A stretch of DNA of 64,000 nucleotides from Balanoglossus misakiensis (Eukaryota > Animalia > Hemichordata). Location of the stretch: NCBI GenBank assembly GCA_040954595.2, contig CM082597.2, forward strand, positions 7,155,849 to 7,219,848. Reading direction: 5' to 3'. The notes beneath the pieces were generated by a model. The model saw nothing but the letters and a program-made list of their open reading frames with translations. It had not been told where the DNA came from and ran no database searches. The translations under genes were made by a program, and so were the position numbers. Shown here one piece after another: positions 3,001 through 24,128 of the stretch (position 1 is the first letter of the stretch; each line of letters starts with the position of its first letter).

Positions 3001-5547
3001 GTTCCGAGAGGAGATATCCATTTTATTTCATCGGCAGCTGGGATTGCAGACACATTACATTGAAGACTTGCGTCAAAGCCCTCTTTTACTTGATATACTA
3101 CTGGTGTGACCACTGTTGGATTGGCTATGGAAAGAACAAGACAATACAAAGATGAAATGACATCAGACAATATTTCGCTAATGATACGGCCCACATACCC
3201 ATGTTATTTATGATCGACGTACATGTATTGGATAGGGTCAACTTTGCATTGGAGACGTGCGTCAAAATCCTCAGGATCCTCGTCAGATTAGGTTGGAAAA
3301 TAATAAGAATATGAGTGCATTTGTGAATCGATTTGGCAAGAATTTATGTTGGTTCATCGGGTGTTAAGATGCCATACGGTGTACGACGGAGAGCGTCAAC
3401 GGGCCACAAAAGATTTAAATACTAGTTTATGAAAAAGTAAAAGATATAGCTGAAAAAATGAATACTGTCTAGTTTGTTGTCTGGAACCTTCAGTTACTTT
3501 AAAAAAGAAATAGTTGTATCCAGGTTTAAATCTTTGTGAGTGTGACCAGAGCAACCGATGCAACTTTAATATCGTGAATATTAGCCTAGAAATTGCCAGA
3601 TATGACCTTGATGGGTGGATGGACCTGGCATGATCCTGTGTCAATGTGAGAGGTTTACCAACAGGGTTACTTGGGGGCCTGATTTGGGATATGCGATAAT
3701 ACACAAATATTAAAGTATCACGTCTATGCTAATTTGACCTTTAAAAACTTACATAGAACATAAATCGTAGTATCCCTTGTTTCCAGTCCCGTTCTGCCAT
3801 CATAGTACACGTTGCTTACAGTGCATGTGTAGATGTGGAAGTTGTTCGGTTCTGGTTGTATGTTCCTGATAACTAATGGGTTTCCAAACTCTTGGCTTTC
3901 ATCACCTCTTCGCTTCCACATAATCGATGTCTTCGGCGGATTGCCTGGTGTAAACTCACAACGAATTCTGAGGTCGTCACCTTTCTTAACACAGATTGAG
4001 GATGGAGAGGATGCAGTCGGTGGATCTAAATTATTTAAAATATGTGTGTTAAGACCACTGCAAGTGTGATGTACTTTGATTGAATGTATTGAAAATTTGT
4101 AGTCATCAAAAACTTTAACAAATTGGAATATTACATGATGCATATATAGTATTAATTAAACTAAGAGTCGACGTAAATTACTGGCAACTTAAAAAGAATG
4201 GATATAAATTAAGCCCTAGTGGTGAGAATTACACTGCATTCATTAATATAAAATAACATATACTTTACATACATTGTACATTTGGTACTATAGGGTTTGA
4301 ACAAGTCCAAGGTGATCCAGTACTGTCACGATGCACCAGGCTACAACTAAAGGGAATCCCATGATCATCATTGGATATCGTGATCTCGTAATGTAATGGA
4401 CTTCTATCCCCACGTTTGATCTCCTTCCCATTTTGAGTCCAAACAAGTTCACCTGGTGGCACGACGTTTTTTGTCGTAACATGGCACAGCAAGGAAATTG
4501 TACTTCCGACAACCACTTCGTCGTTTGGTCCCAAACCGGAAATCCTAGAGCATTCTGGTTCATCAATACCTGGAAGATTACATATCATGCAATGCTTTAT
4601 ATTGCTGCGATGGAAACGTGTGACCAGAAAACTGCGGAAAATGTATTGTGCAAGCGCAATTAATCTGCGGTGAATTTGAAGTAATCTAAACCGGGGATAA
4701 TGAACTTCAAAACATAACGTGGATTAAGTTATTTAAAACAAACACCATATTCACAAGCGCACAAATTTATCCACTGCGCCAGTTCTCGGTCTGAAATAGA
4801 AATGAGTAAAATAATGAGTAAAATGTTTGTATTATGTCTCAAGAGCAAACTTAATGCAATGCATTAACATACCAATCACAGTAACTTCAGCCAAAGCTAC
4901 TTGAAATGGAGAAGAATATCTACACACCCATATCCCACGATGTTCCGTTGATGCTTTGTGGACGAGTAAGCTGCCTTCCCCATTTGATGCGTCACCTACG
5001 ACGCTACAACATTCATCATAAGAGATGCCGTTTCTTACAACAAATTGTTTTAAAAAACCATGCGTGCCATTCCGTGGCGTCTGCCAATGAGGAAGGAAAT
5101 TCCAGCGATTTGGATTTACCGTACAGTTCAGCAACAATTCTTCTCCTTCCTTGACAATTGTATCCACTGGTGTTACCGTTAGGCCTAATGGTTGCTGTGA
5201 AACTACGTAAGTGGAAACCCGAAAAAATTATCTTAATTAAAATGTATTATCGTCAACTATTTGATGTATATTGTGAATAATATGGAAACCCCAATTTGTT
5301 GGTGTTATACTCTAATGCTGTAGTACAGGCCTTCTATCAGTAGAATCAGCCTCTGTCTGTCTGTCTGTCTGCCTGTCTGTCTCTCACTCTCTTTCTGCCT
5401 CTCTCTGTCTCTCTCTGCATCTCTTTTCCATGAAAACATGTTCAATAGTATGCGATTACCTGATTTCTTACCTGCACACAAGACTGGATATACGAATACA
5501 ATAATGGCGACAAATGTTGGTGCACTGATAAATTGTGTTTCCTTCAT
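1..5547 (-). CDS. Copy A of Ig/FN3 receptor tyrosine pseudokinase-like gene (5 Ig + FN3 + TM); 3' part runs off the window
   Basis: Exons in transcript order: leader 5472-5547 ([25 protein letters not shown]), IgV 4873-5202, Ig2 4273-4569, Ig3 3753-4025, Ig4 2858-3124, Ig5 2340-2666, FN3 1482-1754, TM 1039-1182 ([29 protein letters not shown]), 644-688 (HSYESI), acidic exon 223-398, start of first kinase exon 1-21. GT/GC-AG sites; exon lengths match copies B-D; Ig6 and Ig7 exons absent. Confidence 0.85.
1228..1461. repeat. Compound (CATA)n/(CA)n microsatellite, intron 9 of A (homologous tracts 14298-14460, 17147-17325, 17745-17905, 33692-33840, 57456-57580, 58011-58142)
   Basis: Directly visible; source of the MYVC/HTYI pseudo-ORFs. 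Confidence 0.95.
1851..2093. mobile_element. Truncated foreign fragment (TTAA-adjacent, probable transposon end) at the Ig6-Ig7 deletion of copy A
   Basis: No homology to other copies; begins TTAAGGTGGCATTGCA. Flanks match intron 8 (left) and intron 6 (right) of copies B and D. Confidence 0.5.

Positions 5548-24128: not shown

Follow-up and report, generated by a model that had tools for sequence, protein, structure and literature searches.

Selection on the front face of a variable-type (V) immunoglobulin (Ig) domain is already known from Hydractinia Alr2 and from vertebrate immune receptors. The nearest precedent for placing such a domain on a kinase is the Ig receptor tyrosine kinase (Ig-RTK) of the sponge Geodia cydonium. 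Together with SAML it represents an invertebrate V-like Ig receptor kinase with a related sister of the adhesion or ITIM (immunoreceptor tyrosine-based inhibitory motif) type, and a role in self/non-self recognition has been proposed. Ig-RTK has two Ig domains, and its polymorphism runs over both and is not confined to one face (PMC11926128). We analyzed a 64,000-nucleotide stretch of the acorn worm Balanoglossus misakiensis (GCA_040954595.2, contig CM082597.2, positions 7,155,849 to 7,219,848, forward strand), which we call the window, and found a tandem array of four receptor genes, copies A to D, with Ig and FN3 domains and a tyrosine-kinase-type tail. We conclude that one predicted face of the V domain has very probably been under positive selection. 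What we did not find described elsewhere is V-face selection on a tandemly multiplied Ig-FN3 receptor tyrosine pseudokinase in a hemichordate. The literature searched, including PMC8662651, PMC11999971 and PMC10210618, gave no description of this family and none of a variable Ig-type recognition family in hemichordates; kinome surveys of amphioxus and sea urchin may list related clades.

The V-type exon of copies A and B

Self-comparison of the window revealed several long repeats of ~85-95% identity, some of them inverted. Exon mapping identified the four receptor genes, all with open frames and standard splice sites. Their introns are GT-AG throughout except for one GC donor, which follows the transmembrane (TM) exon in all four copies. 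The full plan, with domains assigned by Pfam, begins with a signal peptide and a V-type Ig domain, continues with six further Ig domains, an FN3 and a TM, and ends in a pair of short cytoplasmic exons followed by the seven exons of the tyrosine kinase. These splice models were predicted from the sequence, and relatives from Ptychodera align with them.

The V exons of A and B lie on the minus strand and are both open. They differ by 19 replacements in 108 aligned codons and a one-codon indel, or by 24.5 non-synonymous and 2.5 synonymous changes. A first-pass annotation of this DNA had quoted three pairs of A and B peptides, including [15 protein letters not shown] after the B-strand Cys, and an indel of one codon after the F-strand Cys; we found all of these to be exact. 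It had also described the replacements as clustered, which a permutation test confirmed (p = 0.016; the same test gave 0.69 for Ig3, 0.80 for Ig4 and 0.054 for Ig5). Its comparison of about 20 replacements in V with 3 in Ig2 is correct as a count (19/108 plus the indel against 3/98), but the choice of Ig2 was selective, as Ig3, Ig4 and Ig5 have 15 each (15/90, 15/88 and 15/108). The V replacement rate is thus not above that of Ig3-5 (19/108 vs 45/286, Fisher p = 0.65). V is distinctive in its low synonymous divergence, 2.5/77.5 sites vs 16-18% in Ig2-4, and in the placement of its changes. The divergence at Ig2-Ig4 synonymous sites is itself threefold that of introns (those separating these exons differ by 5-6%), and CpG decay does not account for it, with 6/30 changes at CpG. 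The flanking non-coding DNA, which had been called highly similar, differs by 4-8% in the introns beside V, and the length of intron 2 is 1058 bp in B against 303 bp in A. A ratio of non-synonymous to synonymous rates (dN/dS, omega) of 1 or less with equally raised synonymous divergence had been named as the pattern that would point away from selection. We found an omega of ~4 and low synonymous divergence, and that case does not apply here because the introns beside V diverge at close to the V synonymous rate.

We examined selection with codon models that were our own implementations, not PAML, and with only four V sequences. The pairwise maximum-likelihood omega for A and B was 4.07 in V (p = 0.026 vs 1), compared with 0.10 in Ig2, 0.39 in Ig3, 0.45 in Ig4 and 1.03 in Ig5; the difference between V and pooled Ig2-5 (0.40) was significant (p = 2e-4). 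Pairwise M1a/M2a tests gave p = 1e-4 for V and p = 0.38 for Ig2-5. The per-exon comparison of M7 with M8 that the first-pass annotation had proposed, performed on all four copies, was significant for V (2dl = 42.6, p = 6e-10, omega ~13 on 26% of sites) and for none of Ig2 to Ig5 (p = 0.25, 1.0, 0.15 and 0.74). Multi-nucleotide changes were then allowed in the models because 6/20 differing V codons have two or three changes. With such changes at the background rate the pairwise site test gave p = 0.001, and with their rate free the four-copy comparison of M8a with M8 gave p = 5e-5. As a model-free control, we scored windows of 33 codons. The best V window, codons 29-61 (Table 1), scored 15.9, above the top score of 9.0 from 30 comparisons of non-V Ig exon pairs, which are not independent of one another. 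We conclude that the signal of selection in V is good, resting on four sequences.

To place the changes, we built an AlphaFold2 model of V with 14 relatives added (pLDDT 87; residues 45-49 unreliable). The model is a V-set sandwich with C26 and C93 as the B-F cysteines, W39 as the C-strand tryptophan, and the A', C' and C'' strands present (14-16, 52-56 and 59-60). V-set clusters of the Atlas scored the domain at 0.96, and Pfam PF07686 matched it with 18-24 bits (E 4e-5 to 3e-3), under the gathering cut-off of 26. We found 19/20 variable sites on the front half, which runs from the end of strand B to C'' and from F to the start of G (46/109 residues). The proportions of non-synonymous and synonymous differences (pN and pS) were 0.226 and 0.048 in the front half and 0.007 and 0.022 in the back half, where a single replacement represents 1 non-synonymous change in 142 sites. 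A stricter count of strand residues assigned by DSSP gave 8/25 in front vs 1/20 in back (p = 0.03). In strands C, F and G, 6/7 outward positions change vs 0/9 inward positions (p = 9e-4), with the register fixed by invariant residues. This mapping relies on DSSP strands and on the usual inward/outward alternation of V-set residues, rather than on measured exposure.

The variable surface is therefore predicted to be the GFCC'C'' face, the surface through which binding takes place in Kirrels, nephrins, nectins and Dpr/DIPs (10.1101/462036). As the first-pass annotation had expected, the A/B variable sites gather on one predicted surface. Its view of the pattern as similar to complementarity-determining regions (CDRs) did not hold, since only 6/20 sites fall in narrow CDR equivalents and 11/20 in wide ones; the remaining sites are in the C, C' and F strands and the CC' loop. 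Likewise, the frameworks it had called identical are so in strands A, A', B and D (no replacements) and nearly so in E (one), but the framework strands C, C', F and G carry many. Selection on one V face is thus supported, but that face consists of the GFCC'C'' sheet and the loops belonging to it, not of a set of antibody-type CDR loops, and we infer that it binds a ligand.

A single germline exon carries the V domain, strand G included, and terminates in a phase-1 donor. We considered a rearranging variable region of the antibody or T-cell receptor (TCR) kind and rejected it, as strand G lies in the same germline exon with no separate J; recombination signals were not searched for. An adjacent pair of cysteines at V residues 64-65, ahead of strand D, occurs in all four copies and in most hemichordate relatives and marks the family.

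V lineages, pseudokinase tails and relatives

Two more copies in the window, C and D, are also open and carry a second V lineage. In every copy pair most introns are 3-8% divergent, while V differs by 24-25% between the A/B and C/D lineages, and this split reaches into intron 2. The V changes between C and D coincide with A/B variable sites at 5/11 (p = 0.028). Informative sites group the copies as AB|CD in V (67/68), AD|BC in Ig3 (5/5), AC|BD in Ig4 (7/9) and AD|BC in Ig5 (10/14). This change of topology from exon to exon shows that paralogs have exchanged sequence, and the groupings make it clear that gene conversion operates within the family. The picture that emerges is one in which stalk and tail would evolve in concert while V escapes. 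Within Ig5, codons 41-52 form a two-state patch, A and D against B and C, with 8/10 supporting sites inside 12 codons; the patch is likely either a conversion tract or a second variable surface.

Further V sequences were found in public contigs from runs X1 and X2 of one sample, of which 159 and 115 contigs were placed on 1.4 kb. Among the 40 of 180 variant rows listed, 27 V positions vary, of which 14 agree with B and 5 with C/D only, leaving 8 new ones. These variants point to a larger family and add no support for the face. Over 5108-5329, contigs of these runs show other V 5' ends, with gaps and a loose end unlike those of A-D, a hint of a third V type in this sample.

Copies B, C and D have a receptor tyrosine kinase layout, with a signal peptide, one TM helix and a tyrosine-kinase-type domain (PF07714 on kinase exon 5, E 4.5e-14). 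The motifs expected of an active FGFR/RET-type kinase are all replaced in the three copies: GxGxxG is absent, HRD is HRY (IRY in B) and DFG is NFS, with VAIK kept. In copy B the segment from the catalytic loop through the DFG equivalent reads [11 protein letters not shown]. By a published motif table (PMC13259870), these tails would be classed as tyrosine pseudokinases, and we infer that they are catalytically inactive. The kinase exons differ by ~2-3% among B, C and D (hand-summed). Just ahead of the kinase is a tandem pair of YxxL motifs with a spacer of 10 residues, which is outside the strict consensus of 6-9 for an immunoreceptor tyrosine-based activation motif (ITAM); a loose consensus of 6-12 takes it in (PMC13358205). 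Relatives keep two tyrosines at similar spacing, and the last position of the motif is often Pro or Cys.

Relatives were found mainly among hemichordates. A profile of the four V domains gave 106 representatives, and of the 20 examined, 18 belong to the acorn worms Ptychodera, Glandiceps and Saccoglossus, the other 2 to a crinoid; whole-protein identity to relatives is 27-41%. Kinase exon 1 matched just one of 6 candidates, a protein of Ptychodera flava, at 63% across 85% of its length, and the Ig6 exon matched none (0/150 candidates). Ptychodera has V-Ig-FN3-TM-pseudokinase proteins as well as short V-TM proteins, several of them on one contig. The P. flava relatives have HRY or HRC for HRD and NFS, NFA or NFG for DFG, so the pseudokinase state is old and has been kept. 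When one Ptychodera relative was searched against the PDB, the best 60 of 699 matches comprised one EGFR-labelled row and then FGFR/RET kinases, with no PTK7. In Glandiceps talaboti, two proteins match the copy B ectodomain from V to TM (XP_077985743.1, 36% over 793 columns; XP_077986001.1, 27% over 859). Their tails have no kinase and carry ITIM and immunoreceptor tyrosine-based switch motif (ITSM) sequences. One ectodomain type thus occurs with two kinds of tail, in different genera. A V tree of 18 rows was poorly resolved (4/15 inner branches starred) and was not used, and neither were the two weak loci (43% over 30 residues) from a metagenome scan of 135 candidates.

Readings of the variable V face

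We favor a reading in which these genes encode recognition receptors for a changing non-self ligand that signal through a non-catalytic kinase scaffold, and we give this whole immune-type mechanism an even chance. Unequal exchange and gene conversion would hold introns, stalk and tail similar and shift V types among copies, while selection would retain and diversify the V face. That face would bind a microbial or other non-self surface molecule, or would itself be the target of a pathogen. Clustering of the receptors would allow an active kinase to phosphorylate the conserved juxtamembrane tyrosines in trans, SH2 proteins would read them, and the probably inactive kinase tail would serve as a docking scaffold that passes the signal on. 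The relatives with ITIM/ITSM tails could be an inhibitory arm. Extended to its fullest form, the proposal becomes an acorn-worm paired-receptor system of variable V receptors on a nephrin-like stalk, which we regard as rather unlikely. It would comprise an activating arm with a dead FGFR/RET-type kinase and the ITAM-like pair, an inhibitory ITIM/ITSM arm, short or secreted decoys, and a V exon swapped by conversion and diversified by selection. If the pattern of V-face selection on a receptor pseudokinase holds, the array supplies a concrete set of candidate genes, with residues that can be named for mutation and a pair of V lineages that can be set side by side, for asking whether V-domain recognition with an ITAM/ITIM-type balance predates chordates. 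It would likewise be a case in which an inactive kinase is preserved whole as the unvarying portion of a receptor that varies elsewhere.

Several results weigh against this reading or against the selection on which it builds. The excess of V omega over one is marginal for the whole exon (p = 0.026; Fisher 0.035-0.155 by rounding), and V in C and D alone gave an omega of 1.39 (p = 0.6). Multi-nucleotide changes are found in 6/20 differing V codons vs 29/232 in the background. With their rate free the pairwise site test fell to p = 0.046 for A/B and 0.14 for A/B and C/D pooled, and the four-copy M8a/M8 test fell to p = 0.055 when loosely aligned loops of C/D were also masked. The front pN of 0.226 shows no excess (p = 0.11) if the neutral rate is set to 0.17, as at Ig2-4 synonymous sites. 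Ig4 gave p = 0.029 for M8a vs M8, and the Ig5 changes are also clustered (p = 0.019-0.054). The borders between front and back were set with the data in view. The 8 new V variants among the rows listed from runs X1 and X2 all replace a residue when read singly, and only 4 lie in the front half, which is no enrichment. The three tails visible in the window are all of the pseudokinase type, and among the relatives examined ITIM/ITSM tails were found only in Glandiceps. The closest folds to the V model are also those of adhesion and wiring receptors rather than immune receptors. Kirrel3 D1 was the best structural match (Z 14.5, rmsd 2.0, 96 aligned), followed by RIG-5, Kirrel2, DIP and Neph1, with TCR and antibody domains ~1.5-2 Z units below.

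These folds bring in a possible, if doubtful, explanation in which the V face is a self-identity code. Each copy would bind the same or a matching V on another cell, in the manner of Hydractinia Alr2 or of the Kirrel/Dpr-DIP group. Such binding would serve tissue compatibility, recognition between gametes or the sorting of cells, with novel specificities at an advantage. The first domains of the top structural matches pair through the GFCC'C'' face. In addition, domain 1 of Alr2 has its selected and specificity-changing sites on the C/C' side, as here (PMC8282982), and PTK7, a pseudokinase with seven Ig domains, adheres homotypically (PMC13259870). The fold does not discriminate between the two readings, however, because the Z values of adhesion, TCR and antibody domains lie within ~2 units. 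One would sooner expect a wiring code to become fixed than to be reshuffled through conversion, loss of domains and insertion of transposons, and allorecognition of the fusion type is less expected, as acorn worms are solitary. Selection on the V face is common to this explanation and to the non-self reading, and we hold it to be highly probable.

Two further explanations do without positive selection. In one, which we consider improbable, short conversion tracts from unseen paralogs and multi-nucleotide mutations entered a recently homogenized V, with purifying selection acting only on the core and the back sheet. Conversion is indeed active, exon groupings are mosaic, another sample holds many more V variants, the signal weakens once multi-nucleotide changes are free, and V synonymous divergence is below that of Ig2-4 (p = 0.003). 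However, tracts from a diverged donor should carry synonymous changes, and the front has only 1.5/31 sites; were pS equal to pN, two or fewer would occur with a probability of 0.018, and with a donor at 0.17 that probability is 0.083. By eye, moreover, none of the A- or B-specific patches recurs as a complete tract in C, D or the V fragment that C contains, and two V lineages that stay 24% apart amid homogenization would themselves need selection or a barrier to conversion. The other explanation, which we find very improbable, is that constraint has been relaxed in copies that are redundant or in decay, or that the assembly has placed haplotypes of a single gene next to each other. It draws on the exons lost from A and C, on a fifth copy that is a fragment, and on FN3 and TM exons with few synonymous and several non-synonymous differences. 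It is opposed by four open frames with standard splice sites, the near absence of non-synonymous change in the V back half and an Ig2 omega of 0.10. The two-haplotype version fails because there are four copies with different insertions, one of them inverted. Taken together, we continue to favor selection on the V face, with the immune-type mechanism as its leading interpretation.

The array and known receptor systems

The features of the array are collected in Table 1. Copy A is without the Ig6 and Ig7 exons and copy C is without FN3, and the reading frame is kept after both losses. At 1755-2339 in copy A, ~1.2 kb with Ig6 and Ig7 is gone and ~240 bp of unrelated sequence stands there instead. 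The FN3 exon lies between microsatellites in B (17146-17308 and 17758-17905) and in D (57455-57582 and 58011-58142), while copy C has one microsatellite only (33733-33838) and no FN3. This single microsatellite, where B and D have one on either side, suggests that the FN3 loss in C was a repeat-mediated, in-frame domain deletion. The loss is similar to the repeat-linked deletions proposed for sea-urchin Sp185/333 (PMC5103432). More broadly, the copy-number change, domain loss and conversion seen in the array fit published descriptions of immune receptor clusters (PMC13358205, PMC5103432), a point in favor of the non-self reading.

Table 1. Features of the receptor array in window coordinates (Nd and Sd, non-synonymous and synonymous differences between A and B)
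Feature	Position	Strand	Remarks
Copy A gene up to window edge	223..5547	-	kinase exons would fall left of base 1
Copy A signal peptide	5547-5472	-	
Copy A V-type Ig exon	4873..5202	-	phase 1-1, extends through strand G
Copy A V codons 29-61 (BC loop, C, CC', C', C'')	5018..5116	-	13/20 A/B variable sites; Nd 17.5, Sd 0.5
Copy A V codons 89-101 (strand F, FG loop and first part of G)	4898..4936	-	6/20 variable sites including the one-codon indel
Copy A Ig2	4569-4273	-	
Copy A Ig3	4025-3753	-	
Copy A Ig4	3124-2858	-	
Copy A Ig5	2666-2340	-	
Copy A FN3	1754-1482	-	
Copy A TM	1182-1039	-	
Copy A cytoplasmic exons	688-644, 398-223	-	
Copy B full gene	9991..24128	-	19 exons, 1255 aa open frame; signal peptide/V/Ig2-Ig7/FN3/TM/kinase
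Copy B V-type Ig exon	23442..23768	-	A/B lineage
Copy B FN3	17615-17343	-	
Copy B TM	14256-14113	-	followed by two juxtamembrane exons
Copy B tyrosine pseudokinase exons (predicted)	9991..12474	-	seven exons
Copy C gene	28539..38701	-	1159 aa open frame, without FN3 exon
Copy C V exon	38033..38344	-	C/D lineage; ~24% nucleotide difference from A/B
Partial V duplicate in copy C intron 2	37766..37890	-	degenerate, frameshifted
Orphan fifth signal-peptide exon	42721..42796	-	duplicated upstream DNA, no V exon behind
Copy D gene	51531..63365	+	inverted; all 19 exons, 1245 aa open frame
Copy D V exon	51882..52193	+	C/D lineage; 11 replacements vs C, 5 at sites also A/B-variable

Intron 2 of copy A may contain a 28-nt cassette (4763-4790, minus strand) spliced to Ig2, since in run X3 a contig of depth 2.5 connects 4761 with 4567 over a GT-AG intron. 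This single contig is the X3 support for the cassette, and X3 is not recorded as RNA. Inclusion of the cassette would bring a stop at residue 147, just past V, and so yield either a secreted protein with V alone or a transcript that decays. Between FN3 and TM in copy B, a broken retrotransposon-like insertion with repeated ends occupies 14460-17140 on the plus strand. Its motifs recall what we take to be a Penelope-type element; Pfam gave no match on 4 frames of the 14.6-17.1 kb insertion. One repeat element with internal repeats of ~240 bp occurs at 20248-21296 (B intron 4) and 31134-32674 (the C intron before the kinase). The spacer between C and D (44275-50100) has inverted duplicated blocks and A/T-rich tandem arrays at ~47.2-48.0 and 48.5-49.2 kb.

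The proteins most like these copies are three P. flava entries named 'FGFR-like' (XP_070551455.1, XP_070547375.1 and XP_070549793.1). They share a V first domain with the CC motif, more Ig domains, a TM, a kinase with HRY/HRC and NF(S/G/A), and tandem juxtamembrane tyrosines, and they differ in a variable number of domains, at 31-41% identity. The names are automatic, these are not FGF receptors by domain content, and we found no study of them. The Glandiceps proteins, named 'nephrin-like', share the ectodomain from V to TM and differ in the tail.

Nephrin and Kirrel (SYG-2/SYG-1) and Dpr/DIP resemble the array in giving the best structural matches to V, in the Ig array with FN3 and in the GFCC'C'' binding face. 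They are not known to carry a kinase or to form fast-churning tandem arrays. We rejected identity with nephrin or Kirrel: the first domain folds like Kirrel D1, but the copies end in a kinase-type tail and have eight domains outside the cell, against ten in nephrins and five in Kirrels (10.1101/462036). PTK7/CCK4 has seven Ig domains, a TM and a pseudokinase, but it keeps the catalytic-loop Asp and has ALG (PMC13259870), whereas here Asp is Tyr, DFG is NFS and there is an extra FN3. Identity with PTK7/CCK4 (seven Ig, no FN3, HKD/ALG) was rejected without a kinase tree, on the FN3 in A, B and D and the differing motifs. FREP, VCBP and Dscam were likewise set aside on domain content, since the gene models lack fibrinogen and chitin-binding exons as well as arrays of alternative exons.

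Two further systems resemble the array in their description. Hydractinia Alr1/Alr2 and the Alr family are clustered Ig superfamily genes with a V-set first domain, an Fn3-like domain, tyrosine motifs in the tails and selection on the C/C' side. They differ in that they are not reported to have a kinase domain and that the function of Alr2 has been shown (PMC8282982). Vertebrate paired receptors, among them SIRP and CEACAM, have no kinase domain, and the comparisons made here gave no sign of homology to them. Those such as Siglec-5/14 and PILR share an N-terminal V domain on a C2-type stalk, rapid evolution through duplication and conversion, and alternative tails (PMC13358205). There, conversion keeps V alike and the tails differ, whereas here the tails are alike and V differs.

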